DNA of 64,000 nt, taken from positions 24,814-88,813 of the forward strand of contig CAZSGY010000006.1 of NCBI GenBank assembly GCA_964606975.1, read 5' to 3'. Below the pieces are notes generated by a model. It saw nothing but the letters and a program-made list of their open reading frames with translations. It did no database searches and had not been told where the DNA came from. The position numbers and the translations under genes were made by a program. Position 1 is the first letter of the stretch. Each line of letters opens with the position of its first letter. This DNA is from an uncultured Gammaproteobacteria bacterium (GTDB taxonomy: Bacteria > Patescibacteriota > Microgenomatia > UBA8517). Below, in pieces: positions 19,356-48,757 of the stretch.

Positions 19356-19633
19356 ACACACAATTACCTAAAGTCATAGCGAAAAGCAAAAAAAGAGTCG
19401 GACGCGGAATGGGAAGTGGAAAAGGTTCCCATACCTCGGGCCGTGGACAAAAAGGACAAAAAAGTCGAGGCACAATCGGAGTTCTTTTTGAAGGAATGAA
19501 AATGAGAAAGTCATATCTTAAAAGACTTCCTTTAATGCGTGGAAAGGGAAAATTTCATCCAAAGAAGACCAGAAAACAAAAATACGTTGAGTTCAAAGCC
19601 AAAAAATCCGCCCCTAAGAAAGCTTCCAAATAA
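19352..19633 (+). CDS. rplO: 50S ribosomal protein L15 (uL15), short form lacking the C-terminal globular domain
   Basis: KRVGRGMGSGKGSHTSGRGQKGQKSRG...FEG N-terminal uL15 block, then Lys-rich tail; 93 aa versus ~145 typical; follows rpsE directly with no rpmD. Confidence 0.85.
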   Translation: MNTQLPKVIAKSKKRVGRGMGSGKGSHTSGRGQKGQKSRGTIGVLFEGMKMRKSYLKRLPLMRGKGKFHPKKTRKQKYVEFKAKKSAPKKASK

Positions 19634-19697
19634 AATTGTTAGAGAAGGGATTCCGCGTGTGGTTTCAGGATCAGATTTGGGATATAATCCTTATACA

Positions 19698-20978
19698 ATG
19701 TTTAATTCGATTGTTAAGTTTTTTGTAAAGGCCTTCAAAACTCCTTCCATTAGGAAAAAACTTTTAATTACGGGACTAATTTTAGTTGTTTTCAGACTTG
19801 CCGCGCATATTCCGGCAGCCGGAATAGACAGGGATACGCTTCAAGCTTTGTTTTCAGGAAGCCCGCTACTTTCTCTTTTGGATGTATTTTCCGGAGGAAC
19901 CTTGGCAAATTTTTCTATTCTGGCCTTAGGACTTAATCCTTACATCAATGCTTCGATATTTTTCCAACTTTTAGGATATGTTGTTCCTTCAATTCAGGAA
20001 CTGCAAAAAGAGGGTGAGTACGGTCAGGAAAAAATAAACCAATATACCAGACTTTTGACAGTTCCTTTGGCGGCTCTTCAGGCTTTCGGAATGTACGCTC
20101 TCCTAAAAGGACAAAATATTATTCCGGATCTCTCACCCGTTGCTCTCTTATCTCTAGTTGTAACCATGACGGCCGGTACCATTTTTGCGGTTTGGCTGGG
20201 AGAACTTATTTCCGAATACGGATTTAAAAACGGAGTTTCTTTGCTTATCTTTGTCGGAATCGTTGCCAGACTACCTATCACCTTGGGGCAATCCGTCAGT
20301 ATTTTTCAATCCCAGGATATTTTAAAGACTATTATCTTTATATTGGTCATCGTTCTAATTGTGGGATTGGTGGTTTTGTTCGGTGAAGCTACAAGACAAA
20401 TACCAATTCACTATGCCAAAAGAAGAACACAGTCAGGTTTGGTTGCCTCCTCATATTTGCCGATACGACTTAACCAGGCAGGCGTTATACCTATTATCTT
20501 TGCGGTATCCTTAGTACTTATGCCTTCGATGATCAGCCAATTTTTGGCCAGTGTCCCCAATGAAAAGATTGCAAATTTTGCTATCGGAGTAAGCGCAAAT
20601 TTTAATTCCGGAACCCTTTTGTACAATGTTGTTTATTTTCTTATGGTTTTTGGCTTTACATATTTTTACACGGCAGTTGTTTTTAATCCGGAAAAAATAT
20701 CTGAAGATTTGCAAAAAGGCGGAGGGTTTATTCCCGGTATCAGACCCGGAAAAGAAACAGAAAAATACCTATCCCACGTTCTTTCCAGAATTACGGTTGT
20801 CGGCGGTGTCTTTTTAGGACTTATTGCAGTACTTCCTTCACTTTTCCAAAAATCATTAGGTGCCAGCAATTTGGCCATCGGCGGTACAAGTATTTTAATC
20901 GTTGTTTCGGTAGTTTTAGAAATCATTCGTGAAATTGAGGGGGAGTTGGTTATGGAAAGGTATGAGGGTTTCAATTAA
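19698..20978 (+). CDS. secY: Preprotein translocase subunit SecY
   Basis: MFNSIVKFFVKAF..IRKKLLITGLILVVFRLAAHIP..G; 10 TM; start trimmed from ORF-track 19539 to ATG 19698. Confidence 0.93.
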   Translation: MFNSIVKFFVKAFKTPSIRKKLLITGLILVVFRLAAHIPAAGIDRDTLQALFSGSPLLSLLDVFSGGTLANFSILALGLNPYINASIFFQLLGYVVPSIQELQKEGEYGQEKINQYTRLLTVPLAALQAFGMYALLKGQNIIPDLSPVALLSLVVTMTAGTIFAVWLGELISEYGFKNGVSLLIFVGIVARLPITLGQSVSIFQSQDILKTIIFILVIVLIVGLVVLFGEATRQIPIHYAKRRTQSGLVASSYLPIRLNQAGVIPIIFAVSLVLMPSMISQFLASVPNEKIANFAIGVSANFNSGTLLYNVVYFLMVFGFTYFYTAVVFNPEKISEDLQKGGGFIPGIRPGKETEKYLSHVLSRITVVGGVFLGLIAVLPSLFQKSLGASNLAIGGTSILIVVSVVLEIIREIEGELVMERYEGFN

Positions 20979-27789: not shown

Positions 27790-28875
27790 ATGCCAAAAAC
27801 AAAAAAACCCGAAATTGAGGCTCCAATTAAACAGGAGGGTGGCACTGCCAAACTTCAGGCAATAAGACTGGCAATGGACCAGATCGAAAAACAGTATGGA
27901 AAAGGCTCCATCATGAGGCTTGGTGGCGATTCTGGTGAAAAATACAAAATTGACGTTATCTCTACGGGCTCTCTGGCTGTAGATTTAGCGCTTGGCGTCG
28001 GAGGGCTACCTAGAGGCAGAATCATAGAAATCTACGGTCCTGAGGCCTCTGGTAAGACCACACTGGCCCTTTCGGTCGTTGCCGAGGCGCAGAAAGCCGG
28101 TGGGCAGTGCGCATTCGTGGATGCTGAGCATGCACTTGACCCTGTTCGTGCTGAGATCCTTGGGGTGGATCTGGATAATCTTCTCATGTCTCAACCCGAT
28201 ACAGGTGAACAAGCTTTGGAAATAACGGAAACCTTAATCCGCTCAGGTGCAATTGATGTTGTTGTGGTTGACTCGGTCGCAGCCCTTGTGCCGCGTGCGG
28301 AACTTGAGGGTGAAATGGGAGATTCGGTTATGGGAATGCAGGCAAGACTTATGAGTCAGGCACTACGTAAGCTGACGGGTGCTATAAGCAAATCAAAAAC
28401 GGTTCTGATTTTTACAAATCAGCTAAGACAAAAAATCGGAGTTATGTTTGGAAACCCGGAAACAACCCCGGGCGGGCTTGCTCTTAAATTTTATTCATCT
28501 GTCAGAATCGATCTTCGAAGAATCGAGGTTCTCAAAGACGGCGAAAAGGTAATCGGTTCGCGTCACCGTGCCCGTATTGTTAAAAACAAAGTTGCGCCTC
28601 CGCTTCGCGTTGCGGAATTCGACATAATGGAGTCTGAAGGAATAAGCCGGGCCGGTGGAATTTTGGATGTAGGACTGGAACTGGGAATTATTGGCAAAAG
28701 CGGGTCGTTCTTTAATTATGGAGATAAACCAATCGCGCAAGGTAAGGAAGCGGCAAAAATGTATTTAAGGGATAATCCGAAAGTTGCCGAAGAAATTGAT
28801 AAAAAGATACGCGGCATGGTTGCTTCGGGCCAAAAACTTCCAAAAGAAATCGGAGAAGAAGAAAAAGAGGAGTAA
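27790..28875 (+). CDS. recA: Recombinase RecA
   Basis: [12 protein letters not shown] Walker A, conserved L1/L2 loops; 361 aa; GC noticeably higher than neighbours. Confidence 0.97.
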
Positions 28876-28886
28876 ACTCCCGGCGT

Positions 28887-29510
28887 ATGCCAACTGTTAC
28901 CCTACTCAAGTCTCAAAAAAACGGTAAAAGAGTCAATGTTTATCTTGACGGGGTTTTTGGTTTCGGAATTGATCTTGATAATCTCGTTTTGTCTCACATT
29001 AAAATCGGAACTGAGCTGACGGATGAAGAAGTTCAAAAAATAGTCAGAAAGGCTGAATTCCAAAAAACTCTTGATAAATTGCTGAGATTTGCGACCATGA
29101 GGCCCCGCAGCGAAAAGGAAATTGATGAATATCTTAAGCGCAAAAAAGTTCACGAAAGCATGTGGCGGGATTTGTTTGAAAAATTAAAGCATTTTGAACT
29201 TTTGGATGATGCAAAGTTTGCCAAATGGTGGGTAGATCAGCGCCTTGCTTTCAAGAAAATATCTTCAAAAGTTCTAAAGCTGGAACTCCTCAGAAAAGGA
29301 ATTAAAAAAGAAACTATTGAGAATGTTCTTGAGGAGACGCCAATTGATGAAAAGAAGATGGCAATGGAACTGTTGCAAAAACGTGCTTACAAATGGGAAA
29401 AACTAGACCCGAAAACGGCCAGGCAGAAAAAATTTCAATACCTGGCGGGAAAAGGATTTGATTGGGAAGTAATAACGGAAATATTAAAAGCCGATACGCT
29501 TAACGATTAA
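28887..29510 (+). CDS. recX: Recombination regulator RecX
   Basis: Three-helix-repeat protein immediately downstream of recA; RecX-like repeats (..EKEI..YL..K..). Confidence 0.75.
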   Translation: MPTVTLLKSQKNGKRVNVYLDGVFGFGIDLDNLVLSHIKIGTELTDEEVQKIVRKAEFQKTLDKLLRFATMRPRSEKEIDEYLKRKKVHESMWRDLFEKLKHFELLDDAKFAKWWVDQRLAFKKISSKVLKLELLRKGIKKETIENVLEETPIDEKKMAMELLQKRAYKWEKLDPKTARQKKFQYLAGKGFDWEVITEILKADTLND

Positions 29511-35808: not shown

Positions 35809-35816
35809 CTCTATAC

Positions 35817-36231
35817 TCTGGAGATTAGTAAGCCAGGTTCTGTTTCTCGATGATCATCCATCTTTCGACGGATCTAAAGATCCGCCAAACCGATAAGGTT
35901 TGCTGTCAAATGACAAGCTCTGCTTATCTGTGCCCTCGAACCTCGTCCCGCCTCCCAGATTTCTCCAGGATTTTTAAAAGCTTATTTTCGCCCGTAAAGG
36001 GGCGGAACATTCGGAGGTTGCAGCGGGGAGGATTGCCTCTTTTCACTCGTTTCCATTTACCTTTAGGGTAAATGACTCGACATAGTTTCTGTGGCTCTAT
36101 ACTGGTCTACTGAGTCAGCTTTCGCTGTCCCGGTAGTCTCCGCCTTGCGACGGACACCCTGCTTTCTGCTGCCTGGACTTTCCTCTATCCTAAGCCTAAG
36201 CTCAGAACAGCGATCATCCTTTCTCCAGAGT
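35817..36231 (-). ncRNA. rnpB: RNase P RNA (bacterial type A)
   Basis: Minus strand reads ...GAGGAAAGTCCAGGCAGC... (P4 5' strand) ... GGTAAATGGAAACGAGTGAAAAGAGG ... CGAGAAACAGAACCTGGCTTACTAATCTCCAG (P4 3' strand ACAGAAcCTGGCUUA); P1 pairing CTGGAGA/TCTCCAG; ~415 nt GC-rich ORF-free region. Confidence 0.85.
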
Positions 36232-36257: not shown

Positions 36258-36581
36258 TTGTATAGCAAAATGATTGACAAAATATTAGTAAATGCTAATA
36301 TATTTTCTATGAAACAAGCCATCATTTCCTCGTTTGCAAACACAACCCGGCTAAAACTCCTAATTTGCCTTAAAAGCGGTAGTAAAAATGTTACCGAACT
36401 TATCGCCAACTGCGGCCTGAGCCAATCCGCGGTCTCCCAGCATTTGGAAAAGCTGAGAGCGGCAGGTCTGGTGACCGGTGTTAGAGATGGAAGAGAAATA
36501 GTTTATAGGTTAAGAAGTCAAAAATCTGGTGAATTAGCAAAAAGCTTACTAAATTTTGCAAAGGAGGTGGATAAGAAATGA
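36258..36581 (+). CDS. ArsR/SmtB family transcriptional regulator
   Basis: wHTH: RLKLLICLKSGSKNVTELIANCGLSQSAVSQHLEKLRAAGLV. Confidence 0.85.
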   Translation: MYSKMIDKILVNANIFSMKQAIISSFANTTRLKLLICLKSGSKNVTELIANCGLSQSAVSQHLEKLRAAGLVTGVRDGREIVYRLRSQKSGELAKSLLNFAKEVDKK

Positions 36582-36838
36582 AAACAAAGAAAATAAAACT
36601 TTACTCGACGATGAGCTGTCCTTATTGTCGTATGGAAAAATCCTGGTTGGAAGAAAATAGTATCGACCACGAGGTTGTTTATGTGGATCAAAATCAGGAA
36701 GAAGCAATCAATATGGTGAGAAAGACCGGCCAAATGGGGGTCCCCGTTACCGAAATTGAGACGGAAAACGGCGAATCGGAATACATAGTCGGTTTTGACG
36801 TACAAAAATTGTCAGAGATTTTGGACATCAAAAACTGA
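36578..36838 (+). CDS. Glutaredoxin-like protein (NrdH/Grx family, CPYC active site)
   Basis: KIKLYSTMSCPYCRMEK...GVPVTEI; 4-nt overlap with the arsR-like gene. Confidence 0.85.
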   Translation: MKTKKIKLYSTMSCPYCRMEKSWLEENSIDHEVVYVDQNQEEAINMVRKTGQMGVPVTEIETENGESEYIVGFDVQKLSEILDIKN

Positions 36839-36880
36839 TGTAATTTTCTTTTTTGGAAATTTAGGTTTATCATTTATTAG

Positions 36881-37099
36881 ATGGCCACACCCAAAAAAGA
36901 AGAAGCGAAGGATGTTAAGATTGTCAATAAATGCACAGGTGGTTCTGCTGGTGCCATTTACGGCTTTGGATTCTTGGGTGCTTTGGTCTACTTTATCCAA
37001 CATGCAGGTAGCTTTAGCGAAGGCTTGGTGGGATTTTTAAAAGCTTTGGCCTGGCCGGCGCTTTTGGTTTACAAAGTTTTGGAACTTCTAAAATTTTGA
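36881..37099 (+). CDS. Small two-TM membrane protein, Gly-zipper rich (72 aa)
   Basis: GGSAGAIYGFGFLGALVYF...GLVGFLKALAWPALLVY hydrophobic segments. Confidence 0.5.
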   Translation: MATPKKEEAKDVKIVNKCTGGSAGAIYGFGFLGALVYFIQHAGSFSEGLVGFLKALAWPALLVYKVLELLKF

Positions 37100-37145
37100 A
37101 CTTAAATTTATTAATAGCTTTTGCGTTTAGATATATCATATAAAT

Positions 37146-37820
37146 ATGAAGCTGTCCCTGAAAGGGTTCACTTTGGTTGAAATATTAACCGTAATAGCCT
37201 TGTTGGCTATAGTTACCTTCTTTGCCGCCTTAAACATGTCTGCGCAATTGGCCAAAGCCAGAGATGCGGACAGGAAGGGCGACATTGATGAAATAGGAAA
37301 ATTCATCGAAGAATATTATACGGACACTAATTGCTATCCTATCTCATTGCCTTTGTGTGAAAATTCATTTTCGCTTGGAGATAAAACCTATGTTGCGAAT
37401 ATCCCATGTGATCCGAGGTCGGGAAATTCGTATGTTTATGTAAGCGAAATAAGTTCTTGTCCCAGATGGTTCCAGGTTTACGGCAATTTAGAGTACACAC
37501 AGGATGGTATTATTGACACTCTTGGCTGTCGCAACGGATGCGGTCCAAAGTGTCAGTTTAATTACGGTATTGCCAGTTCAAATGTGAGATTAAATTTTCT
37601 TTGCAGCGAAGTAGCGTCTTCGGAGCCGGTACCAAGCCCCCCTCCGGTAGCGGACGAGACACTGCTTCAATATGTTTGTGCGCCTGGTGGGGAATGCGAA
37701 GCCTTCATGTTTCCTGAACTTTCCGGGTGTCCGGACATTTACATAAATGACCCCACTTGCCAAAGCCAGTGTGATATCCCCAAAAACCGCTGTCACGACG
37801 CAAGAGGAAAGACAAATTAA
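37146..37820 (+). CDS. Type IV pilin / pseudopilin with Cys-rich C-terminal domain
   Basis: Class III signal: MKLSLKG|FTLVEILTVIALLAIV (prepilin peptidase site, Glu+5); ~20 Cys in C-terminal 150 aa. Confidence 0.85.
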   Translation: MKLSLKGFTLVEILTVIALLAIVTFFAALNMSAQLAKARDADRKGDIDEIGKFIEEYYTDTNCYPISLPLCENSFSLGDKTYVANIPCDPRSGNSYVYVSEISSCPRWFQVYGNLEYTQDGIIDTLGCRNGCGPKCQFNYGIASSNVRLNFLCSEVASSEPVPSPPPVADETLLQYVCAPGGECEAFMFPELSGCPDIYINDPTCQSQCDIPKNRCHDARGKTN

Positions 37821-37877
37821 ATTATCTTCATCTTTTAGATACTACGAAATTGTATTATATTAAATTAAATATCCTTT

Positions 37878-39407
37878 ATGCTTTCAAGAATTAATTCCGG
37901 ATCGATTTGCGGTTTAAATGCAGTCTTGGTAGACGTGGAAGTGGACGTTGCTGGTCAAGGGCTGCCCAGTTTTACCATTGTCGGTTTGCCTGATAAGGCC
38001 GTAGAAGAATCTAAGGAAAGAGTCAGAAGCGCCATCAAAAATAGTGGTGCAGACTTTCCTATTACCAGGATTACAGTAAATCTTGCCCCGGCAGATTTGC
38101 CAAAAATCGGACCTGCATACGACTTGCCGATTGCTTTGGGGATAATGATTGCGGCAGGTCAAATTGCTCCGGAAGTGTCAGATAGCCTATTTTTTGGGGA
38201 ATTATCGCTTGACGGGAGCTTACGGCATACAAATGGAATTTTACCAATGGCCAACCTTGCTAAAGAAAAAGGATTTAAAAGAGTTTTCATTCCTAAGGTT
38301 AATGAAAAGGAAGCGTCTGTGGTTTCCGGAATAGAAATCTATCCCATTGACTCGCTTTTATCATTGGTCCGTTTTCTGAATGGCACGGTAGAAATTCCGG
38401 CGGCACGGAAAATAGATTTGGAATCGATATTAACAAAAAGCAATGCAGAATTTGATTTTTCTGAAGTTATCGGCCAGGAGCAGGCAAAACGTGCTTTGGA
38501 AATTGCAGCGGCCGGTGGTCATAATATTTTTCTTCGTGGCACACCCGGGTCGGGAAAAACAATGCTCGCCCGGGCACTCCCCGGGATTTTACCCGTACTC
38601 AGTGAGAGTGAGGCCTTGGAGGTAACAAAAATCTATTCCATAACAGGAAATTTGACGGAAGGCGAGTCGATAATCACCAATCGTCCGTTTCGGAGTCCCC
38701 ATCACACAACCAGTAGAATCGGATTGATCGGGGGCGGGAGCAATCCCATGCCCGGGGAAATTTCTTTGGCACACAGGGGTGTTTTGTTTTTGGATGAATT
38801 TCCGGAATTTCCGAGAAGTGTTTTGGAAGCGTTGCGTCAGCCTTTGGAGGATGGGGTTGTTACCATTTCTCGGGCAAAAGGATCGGTGACTTACCCTGCC
38901 CAATTTTTGTTGGTGGCAGCCAGTAATCCATGCCCCTGTGGCTACTATGGAGACTCAAAGCGTGCCTGTACCTGTATGTCGGGAATGATTACCAGGTACC
39001 AAAAAAGAATTTCGGGGCCAATACTCGACAGGATCGATATGCACATCGATGTACCTTCCGTTGAAACGCAAAAATTGGTAAATGAGGAAGGCACCGGAAA
39101 AGAAAAATCTGCCGCTATTCAAAAAAGGGTTCAAAAAGCACGTAATATCCAGCTTAAACGTTTTAAAGACAGTAGATTGAAATCAAATTCTGAAATGACC
39201 ACCCGGGATGTTAAAAAATTTTGTCAAATAGACGAGGCGTCAAAGGTAATGATGATAAGTGCGGCTGCCACAATGAATTTATCTGCCAGAAGTTATTTCA
39301 AAGTCATAAAAATTGCCCGGACGATAGCCGACCTAGAAGAAAGTAAAAAGATTACAAAAATACACATAGCCGAAGCCCTGCAATATCGGCCGAAAATTCA
39401 GGAGTAA
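37878..39407 (+). CDS. comM: YifB/ComM family Mg-chelatase-like AAA+ ATPase (competence protein ComM)
   Basis: N-terminal Lon-protease-like domain, AAA+ GTPGSGKTMLA Walker A, LFLDEFPEF Walker B, C-terminal ChlI-like domain. Confidence 0.9.
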   Translation: MLSRINSGSICGLNAVLVDVEVDVAGQGLPSFTIVGLPDKAVEESKERVRSAIKNSGADFPITRITVNLAPADLPKIGPAYDLPIALGIMIAAGQIAPEVSDSLFFGELSLDGSLRHTNGILPMANLAKEKGFKRVFIPKVNEKEASVVSGIEIYPIDSLLSLVRFLNGTVEIPAARKIDLESILTKSNAEFDFSEVIGQEQAKRALEIAAAGGHNIFLRGTPGSGKTMLARALPGILPVLSESEALEVTKIYSITGNLTEGESIITNRPFRSPHHTTSRIGLIGGGSNPMPGEISLAHRGVLFLDEFPEFPRSVLEALRQPLEDGVVTISRAKGSVTYPAQFLLVAASNPCPCGYYGDSKRACTCMSGMITRYQKRISGPILDRIDMHIDVPSVETQKLVNEEGTGKEKSAAIQKRVQKARNIQLKRFKDSRLKSNSEMTTRDVKKFCQIDEASKVMMISAAATMNLSARSYFKVIKIARTIADLEESKKITKIHIAEALQYRPKIQE

Positions 39408-47107: not shown

Positions 47108-48757
47108 ATGAAATGGGACCTTCTTAATAAATCGTCGGCCGTCAGCCGTAAATCGTTAATTAATATTCTTCTAAAAAACCGCGGAATCAAAACTGAAAAA
47201 GCCAAAAAAGAATTTATCAATCCGATAGACCCAATGAAAATTAAATTAAGCCAACTTGGGATTGCAGAAAAAGATTTGGATGAAGTAGTAAATCGAATCG
47301 ATCAGGCGCGGTCTAATAAAGAATTTGTGATTATTTACGGCGATTATGACGCAGACGGAATTACAGCCTCGGCAGTTGCCTGGGAAACACTACATGATGC
47401 GGGCGTTGATGTTTTTCCATTTGTCCCGGATCGTTTCGAAGACGGCTACGGAATCAAAGCCAAAAGCGTTTTATCTTTAAAATCACGCTATCCCAAACTC
47501 AAGCTTATCATTACCGTAGACAACGGAATTGTAGCTTATGAGGGTGTCAAGGAAGCAAAAAAACTGGGAATTGATGTGATTGTTATTGATCACCACCAGA
47601 AAGGGGAAAAGCTACCCGACACCAATTTCGTTATTCATTCTACTGAAGTTTGCGGTTCAGCTTTGGTATGGTTTGTTTCCAGGGAAATATATAAAAGATT
47701 AGTTAAAGGAAATTATGAATCGAAAATTAGAGAGAAGCTCCAGCTGTCGGCCATAGGAACGGTTGCTGACCAATTACCTCTCCTGGGGATAAATAGGTCG
47801 GTAGTTAAATATGGACTTACGGAGTTGAATGATACGAAAAGACCGGGTCTTTTGGCTTTATTTAAGGAAGCCGGGATCACTGAGGCCGGACCTTACGAAA
47901 TCGGTTTCGTAATTGCGCCTAGAATCAATTCCATGGGACGTCTTAGGCACGGACTGGAATCATTAAGGCTTTTATGTACGAAAGACAAAGTCCGGGGCAT
48001 TCAACTTGCCGAGGTGATTGGAAAAGTAAATCTGGAAAGACAAAAAGTTGTAGATAGCGTAGTTGAACATGCGCTAAGTATCACGGAAAACAAATCTGCC
48101 AAGATTATTGTTTTAGCGGATGAAAAATATCATGAAGGCGTAATAGGATTGGCGGCTGCCCGATTAGTGGAAAAATACTACAGGCCGGCAATTGTTATTT
48201 CAAAATCCAAGGACGTGTCTAAAGCTTCAGCCAGATCCATTCCCGGGTTTAATATAATTGAGACGATCAGAAAACTTCAGGAATATTATTTAGAAGGCGG
48301 CGGGCATCCGATGGCCGCTGGTTTCTCAATCAATACAGGAAATATCGATATCTTTAGAGAGAAAATAAATTTATTGGCTCAAAAATTGTTAACGGATGAT
48401 CTTTTGCAAAAAAACCTGAAAGTTGACTGCCGTCTTAGTTTTTCAGCGATAAATTACGATCTTTTAAAAGAAATATCCCTATTCGAACCGACCGGGGTGG
48501 GCAATAAAGAGCCGGTTTTTTTTAGCGAGAAAGTTCAACTTTTAGACGTCAAATTTGTAGGTAAGGACAAAAGACACCTCAAGCTAAAATTAAAGCAAGG
48601 TGAACATGTTTTTGACTCAATTTATTTTGGTGGAGGAGAAATTTACTCAAATCTAGCTCCTCAGATGAAAATTGACGTTGCTTACTCGATTGAGGACAAT
48701 TCCTGGAACGGCTACAGAAATATACAGTTAAAGCTCAAAGATCTCCATTTTTCCTGA
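47108..48757 (+). CDS. recJ: Single-stranded-DNA-specific exonuclease RecJ
   Basis: DHH motifs (IIYGDYDADGITA, DHH), DHHA1 domain (GGGH), OB-fold C-terminus. Confidence 0.9.
   Translation: MKWDLLNKSSAVSRKSLINILLKNRGIKTEKAKKEFINPIDPMKIKLSQLGIAEKDLDEVVNRIDQARSNKEFVIIYGDYDADGITASAVAWETLHDAGVDVFPFVPDRFEDGYGIKAKSVLSLKSRYPKLKLIITVDNGIVAYEGVKEAKKLGIDVIVIDHHQKGEKLPDTNFVIHSTEVCGSALVWFVSREIYKRLVKGNYESKIREKLQLSAIGTVADQLPLLGINRSVVKYGLTELNDTKRPGLLALFKEAGITEAGPYEIGFVIAPRINSMGRLRHGLESLRLLCTKDKVRGIQLAEVIGKVNLERQKVVDSVVEHALSITENKSAKIIVLADEKYHEGVIGLAAARLVEKYYRPAIVISKSKDVSKASARSIPGFNIIETIRKLQEYYLEGGGHPMAAGFSINTGNIDIFREKINLLAQKLLTDDLLQKNLKVDCRLSFSAINYDLLKEISLFEPTGVGNKEPVFFSEKVQLLDVKFVGKDKRHLKLKLKQGEHVFDSIYFGGGEIYSNLAPQMKIDVAYSIEDNSWNGYRNIQLKLKDLHFS

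Follow-up and report, generated by a model that had tools for sequence, protein, structure and literature searches.

Adjacent arsR-glutaredoxin, cysteine-rich type IV pilin and comM genes in a bacterium of the candidate phyla radiation are probably independent units

Based on the gene order in related genomes and on the distribution of a single operator, the five adjacent genes described here (arsR; grx, for a glutaredoxin; tm72, for a 72-residue membrane protein; a type IV pilin gene; and comM) are probably independent units that happen to adjoin in a densely packed, almost entirely plus-strand genome of the candidate phyla radiation (CPR), and not one system. They lie in a stretch of 64 kb of DNA which was analysed as a whole and is called the window below. 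The first-pass annotation had seen in these genes a coherent redox-regulated pilin and competence module; this reading is unsupported, since the order is confined to close relatives, the parts vary independently and the operator is found at arsR only, and a false lead towards a redox-controlled pilus/competence system is thereby prevented. Relatives point instead to at least three apparently independent units, namely the arsR-grx pair, a stand-alone pilin gene and comM. In CPR biology, where almost nothing has been characterised experimentally, the pilin family and the arsR-grx cassette are useful by-products of this analysis.

Table 1. Genes of the block and the predicted promoter elements within it.
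Feature	Position	Strand	Basis
arsR promoter/operator	36273..36310	+	promoter scan, inverted repeat, conserved architecture
ArsR/SmtB-family winged-helix repressor, 90 aa	36309..36581	+	PF01022 and NF033788 above cut-offs
CPYC glutaredoxin-like redoxin (grx), 86 aa	36578..36838	+	PF00462; C14-P-Y-C17
72-aa two-TM protein (tm72)	36881..37099	+	two hydrophobic segments; G20xxxG24xxxG28 zipper
Pilin promoter-like element TTAATA-17-TATCAT	37111..37139	+	promoter scan; ends 6 nt before ATG
Type IV prepilin, 224 aa	37146..37820	+	7-residue leader, F+1, E+5
ComM/YifB-family Mg-chelatase-like AAA+ ATPase, 509 aa	37878..39407	+	TIGR00368

The five open reading frames (36309-39407, all on the plus strand) are real, and the identities proposed for them were borne out by Pfam and NCBIfam profile scores or, for the 72-residue Gly-zipper membrane protein (which has no Pfam or NCBIfam match), by its motif and homologues. 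ArsR matches PF01022 (HTH_5; E 3e-13, score 49.9 against a cut-off of 22) and NF033788 (77 bits against 55), the glutaredoxin matches PF00462 (E 4.7e-11, 43.2 bits against 22.9), and the prepilin matches TIGR02532 (22.5 against 16.3), with PF07963 marginally under its cut-off (20.7 against 21.2). ComM matches TIGR00368 over its full length (623 bits against 362) and contains the ChlI, Mg_chelatase and Mg_chelatase_C domains. The bacterium itself is a Woesebacteria-like member of the CPR.

The start of arsR had been placed at TTG 36258, which was not borne out; the most likely start, and almost certainly the true one, is ATG 36309, because homologues are 88-90 residues long and a conserved -35/-10 promoter sits inside the TTG reading frame, ending 7 nt before this ATG. 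The promoter scan located the -35 element (TTGACA) at 36274-36279 and the -10 element (TAATAT) at 36296-36301, and the position of the ATG, 7 nt past the -10 box, implies a leaderless mRNA. Overlapping the same -10 box is a 20-bp palindrome, ATATTAG-N6-CTAATAT (36282-36301), and the inverted repeat at this operator has 16-nt arms that are 81% complementary. Promoter elements are here consensus matches only, CPR promoters being without experimental definition, and the scan as a whole gave no more sites than shuffled sequence. The palindrome and the leaderless promoter architecture recur in front of arsR in 72 of 80 metagenomic loci (and in the relatives L116 and L117), each of the 72 having a single operator copy, at this position. 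The window has one credible copy, with no copy near tm72, the pilin gene or comM (the single further match has three mismatches, and matches are no more frequent than expected by chance), and the operator is absent from 35 loci without arsR (31 pilin loci and four loci of the 72-residue family). Near-identical over dozens of lineages, the operator and its leaderless promoter offer a ready-made regulator-operator pair, and the arsR promoter can be read directly, which is rare in CPR bacteria.

Comparison of the pilin loci indicates how local the five-gene order is. The order arsR-grx-tm72-pilin-comM-dtd was found only in the window (with its copy L036), L116 and L117, that is, in three of the roughly 32 distinct pilin loci, where ArsR identity is never below 71%. 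Near the pilin gene, comM is present in six of these loci, arsR-grx in five and the 72-residue gene in four. Close relatives share the frame miaA-perM-rnpB(-)-(variable)-pilin-(comM)-dtd, within which arsR-grx, the 72-residue gene and comM are present or absent independently. The variable part consists of pspC-tm70 in L004/L011, of genes for an RRM protein and a small four-Cys protein in L013 (with comM) and L012 (without it), and, in three loci that also lack comM, of an AA_kinase-family gene in reverse orientation (L005), of arsR-grx and an RRM protein gene (L038), or of arsR-grx-YgaP_TM followed by the genes of an RRM protein and a four-Cys protein (L039); in L014 the pilin gene comes first, then the RRM and four-Cys protein genes and then comM. 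Beyond close relatives and background synteny the neighbourhood is not conserved: within about 6 kb of the pilin gene, arsR, grx, tm72 and comM are all missing from the more than 20 (about 22) distinct loci whose pilin is at most 58% identical, and DAGK, Lon, signal peptidase I and tRNA-Val are among the genes found there. From the side of the regulator, a pilin homologue is close to arsR in only three of the 80 arsR loci. An arsR-grx pair upstream of the pilin gene is found in five related genomes (the window, L116, L117, L038 and L039), which is more than a one-off and counts against independence, although all five have the same syntenic frame.

The arsR-grx pair is a CPR-wide cassette of its own, probably a self-contained and autoregulated one for thiol/sulfur stress. 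The translational coupling that had been proposed for it can be read in the sequence, as a 4-nt ATGA overlap between grx and the arsR stop, with the Shine-Dalgarno sequence of grx (AAGGAGG) lying within the 3' end of arsR. Grx is the next gene after ArsR in 46 of the 68 loci with enough downstream sequence, and the CPYC motif, read directly in the window protein, is present in 53 of 54 ArsR-linked homologues. Elsewhere, the genes past the pair include those for a YgaP-like TM protein, a rhodanese and an AhpC/TSA protein (peroxiredoxin), which point to sulfur and peroxide stress. The best NCBIfam match of the redoxin is YruB (TIGR02196), at 66 bits below the cut-off of 88.55, and NrdH (TIGR02194) reaches 41.3 against 85.75, so that it is assigned to neither type; it has in common with these redoxins a size of about 80 residues, the thioredoxin fold and the CPYC site, whereas many of its relatives carry an additional fused domain, about 120 residues long and without Pfam match. 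Glutathione synthesis is, to our knowledge, generally missing in CPR bacteria.

The suggestion that this ArsR is of a redox-sensing type is plausible, based on its two cysteines (C20 and C35), invariant among 39 homologues, and on its closest solved relatives (HlyU, SqrR, NmtR, YgaV, NolR and BigR), among which HlyU, SqrR, YgaV and BigR are thiol/persulfide sensors and NmtR is a metal sensor. We infer that the protein is a thiol-switch autorepressor. In this mechanism, an ArsR dimer would bind ATATTAG-N6-CTAATAT, across the -10 box of the leaderless arsR promoter, until modification of C20/C35 released it from the operator, and the coupled CPYC redoxin would then be produced and restore thiol homeostasis. 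Two known sensor classes were also considered and rejected. As(III)-sensing proteins have an alpha-3 site with a Cys pair or triad in the motif ELCVCDL; the corresponding segment here is ELIANCG, whose only Cys is shifted relative to that motif. The SqrR/BigR/HlyU/YgaV dithiol class, with one conserved Cys in the helix ahead of the HTH and another in the C-terminal helix, does not apply either, with 44.1 against 155 for the BigR model and no Cys in the C-terminal helix. The first Cys of the window protein ends the same helix as C41 of SqrR and the corresponding Cys of HlyU, offset by one residue, but its second, C35, lies in the next helix and not in the C-terminal one, where the second Cys of SqrR, BigR and HlyU lies. 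ArsR is thus a candidate sensor of thiol/sulfide stress whose Cys arrangement is unlike that of SqrR, BigR and HlyU. A further difference from the YgaV, SqrR (R. capsulatus), BigR (Xylella) and HlyU (Vibrio) systems is the CPYC glutaredoxin as partner gene, and the 20-bp operator with its leaderless promoter is a mark of this mainly-CPR ArsR clade. The nearest parallel in organisation is the E. coli ygaVP operon, as cassettes of the window type are often followed by a YgaP-like TM protein and a rhodanese, the two domains of YgaP; YgaV has been described as a sulfide-responsive SqrR/BigR homologue (PMC9774250).

The pilin gene probably stands alone, as a structural gene with a predicted promoter of its own. 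Its ATG has neither a Shine-Dalgarno sequence nor an ATGA overlap, and a -10-like box 6-8 nt before it recurs in most close relatives, regardless of the upstream gene. In five distant genomes a tRNA-Val gene directly precedes it, which suggests strong constitutive expression. Among the scanned open reading frames of the window, pilB, pilC, pilD and pilM were not recognised.

The prepilin leader reported earlier (MKLSLKG/FTLVE) was confirmed, the protein having a class III signal peptide, MKLSLKG/FTLVEILTVIALLAIVTFFAAL, with a leader ending in Gly, F+1, Glu+5 and a hydrophobic stretch. The cysteines number 14 by direct count, and not about 20 as first stated. Homologues with the same Cys pattern do exist (121 sequences), which removes the concern that the C-terminus might be spurious, and each of the 14 positions is invariant or at least 90% conserved among them. 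The protein consists of a long N-terminal helix, a globular head with eight Cys (about residues 60-153), a disordered Pro/Ser-rich linker (155-170) and a C-terminal mini-module with six Cys (176-224). The AlphaFold2 model is compact and confident, with the lollipop fold of a long N-terminal helix on an antiparallel beta-sheet, and the closest fold is that of the GspG/EpsG pseudopilin. G-1, F+1 and E+5 are shared with EpsG (V. cholerae, 4lw9), the S. oneidensis pilin 4d40, PilA4 (T. thermophilus, 6xxd) and PulG (5wda), and the layout, a helix of about 50 residues that leads into a beta-sheet head, is also that of these type IV pilins and type II secretion pseudopilins. Over its first 65 residues the protein matches pilin sequences of the PDB, and the GspG-like helix ARDA.RK.DI....IE.YY gives a partial match to TIGR01710 (residues 6-101). 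The head, in contrast, has no sequence match among solved structures, and the Pro-rich linker, the 6-Cys module and the 14 conserved Cys are additions to the known pilins and pseudopilins. Classical pilins have zero to two disulfides. Here, paired loss and conservation of the cysteines, rather than coordinates or chemistry, suggest that the head would be locked by disulfides, seven in total from the 14 Cys, which is far above any pilin that we know of.

The head domain was found in 264 cluster representatives, and in seven distant ones that were inspected the N-terminus was prepilin-like throughout and the C-terminal region was different in four. In Streptococcus sanguinis, PilB and PilC reportedly carry an extra functional module at the pilin C-terminus, shown by the filament of a single-membrane bacterium. 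The relatives of the window head resemble these proteins in bearing other C-terminal regions past a P/T-rich linker, but the window module is only about 50 residues long, Cys-knotted and unrelated in sequence or fold to the vWA and lectin modules. The protein is most likely a GspG-like filament-body subunit that would belong to a Microgenomates type IV pilus, in which the 6-Cys module, on its flexible linker, would be displayed on the outside of the fibre to mediate adhesion or bind a ligand. This conserved and confidently modelled family, with 14 Cys and exchangeable C-terminal modules, is a candidate for the filaments on ultra-small bacteria, and it raises the question of how mostly anaerobic organisms would oxidise seven disulfides extracellularly.

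Several other readings of the block have to be weighed. If the five genes formed one redox-controlled operon, oxidised or persulfidated ArsR would free the promoter for grx, the membrane protein, a disulfide-rich tip pilin and comM, tying piliation and DNA uptake to redox. The genes do share a strand, although this co-directionality deserves little weight, because the plus strand carries nearly all transcription across the window. The gaps between neighbouring genes are short (42-57 nt), and a terminator scan found no convincing intrinsic terminator between any of the five, so that read-through from the arsR promoter into tm72, the pilin gene and comM is possible. The order is kept in L116 and L117, L038 and L039 retain arsR-grx upstream of the pilin gene, and a cytoplasmic redoxin adjoining a 14-Cys exported protein is suggestive. 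Nevertheless, the components are gained and lost independently even inside the syntenic frame, three unrelated genes separate grx from the pilin gene in L039, and none of the approximately 22 divergent pilin loci has any partner gene. The operator is confined to arsR and the pilin -10 box is kept whatever lies upstream, and elsewhere arsR-grx is followed by sulfur/peroxide-stress genes and not by pilins. We therefore regard a single operon as quite unlikely. Slightly less probable still is a composite, in which an uncharacterised bimodular class of type IV pilins, with a seven-disulfide head and a surface 6-Cys knot as receptor for host cells or DNA, would be redox-coupled in a Woesebacteria sub-lineage by read-through from the thiol-stress ArsR promoter.

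The remaining doubts concern the pilin itself. Its cysteines might be metal ligands (Zn or Fe-S type, for example C128-x3-C132-x3-C136) of a metal-binding or electron-transfer pilin, a reading suggested by the CxxxCxxxC spacing and by the 14 conserved Cys; moreover, most CPR bacteria are anaerobes, and in such cells disulfides outside the cytoplasm cannot be taken for granted. This reading is very unlikely: the number of Cys is even, being exactly 14 in 107 of the 121 homologues, and losses occur strictly in sequence-distant pairs (C63 with C105 in four sequences, C136 with C153 along with C205 and C216 in two), as expected of disulfide partners and not of clusters with three or four ligands, while the domain is exported and the confident fold was obtained without cofactor. 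A place as a low-abundance minor or tip pilin, or in a short competence pseudopilus (ComG- or T2SS-like) in place of a long type IV pilus, is the least improbable of these alternatives, yet still rather unlikely. It draws on the GspG/EpsG likeness in fold and weak sequence matches, on comM adjoining the pilin gene in six genomes and on the bulky extra C-terminal module, a feature typical of specialised pilins. Against it, the GspG (TIGR01710) and ComGC (NF040999) scores are far under their cut-offs (27.8 against 88.85 and 16.4 against 75), and the gene is isolated, with no minor-pilin cluster and the sole prepilin motif within 64 kb; in the five distant genomes, its place after tRNA-Val suggests strong constitutive expression. 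The filament-body residue Glu+5 is missing from tip subunits such as GspK but at least 90% conserved in this family, which leaves the "tip pilin" of the first-pass annotation, an assumption from the start, unsupported.

The window comM is a generic YifB/ComM recombination helicase gene, adjoining the pilin gene by local synteny with dtd, nth, miaA and rnpB. Its orthologues in L004, L013 and L014 are 82-85% identical, and it is absent at the equivalent position in L005, L012, L038 and L039, which makes it dispensable at this locus. The protein has the same three-domain architecture as the hexameric ComM/YifB helicase of transformable Gram-negatives; the family is broadly conserved, and any role in transformation would be putative in CPR bacteria. 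ComM promotes branch migration in transformation (bioRxiv 10.1101/147660 / PMC6158740), and its requirement for integrating transforming DNA is known from Gram-negative models only. The com genes for which conservation over the CPR phyla has been reported are comEC, dprA and comFC (PMC10633639).

The 72-residue protein belongs to a family of widespread, uncharacterised small membrane proteins (55 homologues, one of them from Bacteroidota) with the conserved core YG.GF.GA.VYFIQH...WPA..VYK. Its gene has neither a Shine-Dalgarno sequence nor an ATGA overlap, and carries a -10-like box 6-8 nt before the ATG. In this lineage it may be a third member of the arsR-grx unit, or else stand on its own: family members are near arsR-grx in L116, L117 and L067, whereas in L004/L011 and L009 the partner is a PspC-domain gene.

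The five consecutive open reading frames on the + strand at 36258-39407 encode an ArsR regulator, a glutaredoxin (Grx), a 72-residue Gly-zipper protein (hereafter tm72), a prepilin and ComM, family assignments by the first-pass annotation that the profile matches and the sequences bear out. This earlier observation of the block is largely correct; its interpretation as one redox-pilus-competence system is not supported. Two details needed amendment: the pilin, credited with about 20 cysteines, has 14 by direct count, and the ArsR start, placed at the TTG at 36258, is almost certainly the ATG at 36309 (90 residues), given homologues of 88-90 residues and the presence of a conserved promoter within the longer frame that opens at the TTG. 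The genes do share one strand, but this co-directionality means little as evidence, since almost every gene of the window lies on the + strand. Two things keep their interest, neither of them categorically new: the 14-Cys modular type IV pilins of Microgenomates, a strongly conserved and so far uncharacterised family, and a CPR-wide cassette of ArsR and Grx whose operator is near-invariant and whose promoter is putatively leaderless.

Coordinates and gene arrangements in the window and in related loci (L-numbers)
Feature	Position	Strand	Description
Region after rpsE	19356-19900		
SecY, longest ORF	19539-20978		
recA-recX	27790-29510		
RNase P RNA, bacterial class A	35813-36229	-	88 bits, E 1.5e-26, full model 1-367
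arsR promoter/operator	36273-36310		TTGACA, few nt, ATATTAG-N6-CTAATAT, ~7 nt, ATG
arsR	ends 36581	+	PF01022 E 3e-13; NF033788 77 bits (cut-off 55)
Glutaredoxin	36578-36838	+	PF00462 E 4.7e-11; C-P-Y-C motif
tm72 (72 aa)	36881-37099	+	two hydrophobic segments; G20xxxG24xxxG28
tm72 -10-like box			TATCAT, +7 nt to ATG
Prepilin	37146-37820	+	starts MKLSLKG|FTLVE; above TIGR02532 prepilin model cut-off
Pilin promoter-like element			TTAATA-17-TATCAT, +6 nt to ATG
comM	37878-39407	+	full-length YifB/ComM protein; TIGR00368 623 bits
recJ	47108-48757		
PspC-domain gene and tm72-family gene	L004 4543-4939; L009 3316-3713		
RRM protein and 75-aa protein	L012/L013 5275-5972; L039 4854-5461; L014 6278-6888		
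Grx fusion	L046 4249-4872		
Pilin locus L004/L011			pspC-tm70-pilin-comM
Pilin locus L013			RRM protein, small four-Cys protein, then pilin-comM
Pilin locus L012			RRM protein, small four-Cys protein, then pilin-dtd; without comM
Pilin locus L005			AA_kinase-family gene on opposite strand, then pilin-dtd; without comM
Pilin locus L014			pilin, RRM and four-Cys proteins, then comM
Pilin locus L039			arsR-grx-YgaP_TM, RRM and four-Cys proteins, then pilin-dtd; without comM
Pilin locus L038			like L039: arsR-grx and RRM protein ahead of pilin

Of about 32 distinct pilin loci, which were searched with the window proteins, only the window (with L036, contig Ga0209016_1029178, a copy of it at 99% identity) and the close relatives L116 and L117 show the complete order arsR-grx-tm72-pilin-comM-dtd. 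Other relatives retain the frame miaA-perM-rnpB(-)...pilin...dtd-nth(-) with differing contents, and at the pilin loci of at most 58% identity (some on short contigs) none of the four partner genes is present within about 6 kb. Genes for Lon, signal peptidase I, an S8 protease and diacylglycerol kinase, the last overlapping the start of the pilin, are among the neighbours there, and five genomes have tRNA-Val directly before the pilin. Since the contents of the frame vary and the distant loci are without the partners, these genes have been gained and lost independently: the pilin has no conserved partner, and the single coherent module that had been proposed for the five genes is not supported. 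The reading we prefer is that of independent units lying side by side, namely an arsR-grx cassette, a stand-alone pilin and a generic comM. Two proteins go together as a pair within the frame, on either side of the pilin depending on the relative: an RRM protein with a Gly/Arg tail (RNA-binding), and one of 75 residues whose Cys stand in two CxxC-type pairs (MS.CPRCGK...CPDPEC).

The signals around the start codons bear on the same question. Two features couple Grx to arsR: a Shine-Dalgarno sequence (AAGGAGG) ahead of the Grx ATG, and the overlap of this ATG with the arsR stop (ATGA). Both tm72 and the pilin are without a Shine-Dalgarno sequence and have a -10-like box 6-8 nt before the ATG; in most close relatives, the pilin box is kept at that distance whichever gene lies upstream. 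In the pilin branch of 41-44% identity (L025, L026, L028, L029 and L030), a same-strand tRNA-Val(CAC) gene lies less than about 20 nt before the pilin ATG, which suggests that there the pilin is co-transcribed with the tRNA and that 3' processing of the latter yields a leaderless mRNA. The pilin's own -10-like box and the abutting tRNA-Val point to an autonomous pilin transcript, probably leaderless and well expressed. Folding of the three intergenic regions gave no terminator-grade hairpin (z-scores near 0), and therefore read-through from the arsR promoter into the downstream genes is possible; no ArsR operator was found upstream of tm72, the pilin or comM in the window at up to 3 mismatches.

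The arsR-grx pair, for its part, is a self-standing conserved cassette found CPR-wide. ArsR has close homologues across CPR lineages (those named are Levybacteria, WWE3 and Patescibacteria), and among 80 metagenomic loci encoding a relative, the sequence beyond arsR runs on for 700 nt or more in 68, with a same-strand Grx following in 46 of these (19 short forms and 27 fusions of about 207 residues); the CPYC motif is present in 53 of 54 ArsR-linked Grx. A YgaP-like TM protein (PF11127) is often encoded next, and in some loci a rhodanese or an AhpC/TSA peroxiredoxin takes that place. A relative of the window pilin lies within 4 kb in just three of the 80 loci, all three in the syntenic clade. 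In the fusion, the form seen in most ArsR-linked loci (L046 and 26 others), a domain of about 120 residues is joined N-terminally to the CPYC glutaredoxin; an ORF listing showed that what could be taken for a separate gene between arsR and grx is this extension, and its identification as DUF302 was unsupported, the extension having no Pfam match.

The redox-sensing character ascribed to this ArsR is plausible. Its closest solved relatives are HlyU, SqrR, NmtR, YgaV, NolR and BigR, several of which are thiol/persulfide sensors, and both C20 and C35 are invariant (39 sequences). The SqrR/BigR-type geometry is not kept: compared with SqrR, BigR and HlyU, this ArsR has its first Cys shifted by one residue and its second in the next helix instead of the C-terminal one, and the score against the BigR equivalog is far below its cut-off. 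YgaV is described as a sulfide-responsive SqrR/BigR homologue (PMC9774250), and arsR-grx may work like ygaVP, although the window ArsR falls outside the SqrR/BigR equivalog. ArsR would be an autorepressor with a thiol switch, which would control a small redoxin and lineage-specific sulfur- or peroxide-stress genes.

The arsR promoter of the window recurs in L037-L109, L116 and L117, the right arm of its palindrome containing the -10 (TAATAT); the distance of about 7 nt from this -10 to the ATG implies a leaderless mRNA, as judged from spacing. The palindrome is present as a single copy, in every case ahead of arsR, in 72 of the 80 loci and likewise in L116 and L117; the exceptions are mostly 5'-truncated contigs or divergent sequences in which this promoter is missing. 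No copy occurs in 35 loci without arsR, and the only other match in the 64-kb window has 3 mismatches, the number of matches being at chance level. Near-invariant and found mainly in CPR lineages, this element is a rare directly readable CPR promoter.

The Cys-rich region of the pilin is genuine, as homologues keep the same pattern. Most of the 148 homologues at E <= 1e-3 are full-length proteins, and every one that bears a taxon name belongs to Woesebacteria, Roizmanbacteria, Microgenomates or Patescibacteria. In two alignments, of 30 and of 121 sequences, every one of the 14 Cys is either invariant or conserved to 90% or more, and 107 of the 121 sequences have exactly 14. In the larger alignment, C63 and C105 are missing jointly in four sequences, and C136+C153 and C205+C216 in two; such paired loss is the signature expected of disulfide partners, and gives three of the seven presumed pairs. 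The AlphaFold2 model, built on the same 121 sequences (mean pLDDT 89, pTM 0.81), has a helix (10-61) and a head rich in beta structure, then a Pro/Ser linker (155-170) that is disordered, and a C-terminal mini-domain modelled with confidence; by sequence, the match to solved structures is confined to the N-terminal 65 or so residues. The head (residues 60-224) has 264 relatives among 1.84 billion cluster representatives, many matching the first 8-Cys domain only. All seven distant relatives inspected have a prepilin-like N-terminus, and four have a different C-terminal region after a P/T-rich linker; long extensions of this kind occur in P0326, P0339, P0398 and P0309. These relatives look like a modular family with swappable modules. 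The window protein is therefore a modular type IV pilin: its Cys-rich head is CPR-specific, and its C-terminal module, in this case a 6-Cys knot about 50 residues long, is exchangeable.

Regarding its place in the filament, Glu+5 is at least 90% conserved in both alignments, which, with the known features of GspK-type tip pilins as reference, would fit a filament-body subunit better than the tip pilin proposed. In the literature searched, Cys-rich type IV pilins of CPR bacteria are nowhere described; the Pam pili, a novel CPR pilus (2026 preprint), consist of Ig-like donor-strand-exchange pilins and are unrelated. The whole 64-kb window holds one prepilin motif, and neither pilus-assembly genes nor comEC were recognised among its scanned ORFs.

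ComM is a broadly conserved YifB/ComM AAA+ protein, established in Gram-negative models as acting in branch migration during transformation (bioRxiv 10.1101/147660 / PMC6158740). PMC10633639 reports comEC, dprA and comFC as the com genes conserved in CPR bacteria, and type IV pili as essential in Saccharibacteria irrespective of comEC. comM adjoins the pilin in six related genomes and is missing from the same slot in four others; its position is ordinary local synteny. recA-recX and recJ lie at other places in the window, so that the recombination genes are dispersed and form no cluster with comM.

tm72, without a Pfam or NCBIfam match, has 55 homologues with a strongly conserved core and belongs to a family of small membrane proteins that is widespread. 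A Mucilaginibacter genome (Bacteroidota) encodes one of its members, and in two unrelated genomes (L004 and L009) the family gene is directly preceded by a PspC-domain gene of about 60 residues, possibly forming a small envelope-stress pair; elsewhere it is alone. Members occur in Bacteroidota and, with no pilin in the vicinity, beside genes for PspC, SOD or a histidine kinase; a pilus-related role was rejected on these grounds. In four loci (the window, L116, L117 and L067) it lies near arsR-grx, and it may be a third cassette gene in the window lineage.

The window, a piece of a CPR genome, also carries the ribosomal-protein cluster, secDF and several tRNA synthetases. The seemingly empty 470 nt upstream of arsR are occupied by RNase P RNA, conserved in L004, L005, L011, L012 and L013; its score is below the Rfam gathering score of 100, so that it is seen by E-value, whereas at gathering thresholds Rfam gives no match anywhere in the window. 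The longest SecY ORF has about 125 extra residues ahead of the SecY domain, the true start being probably downstream of 19539, and another frame of the region after rpsE may conceal the gene of a small ribosomal protein.
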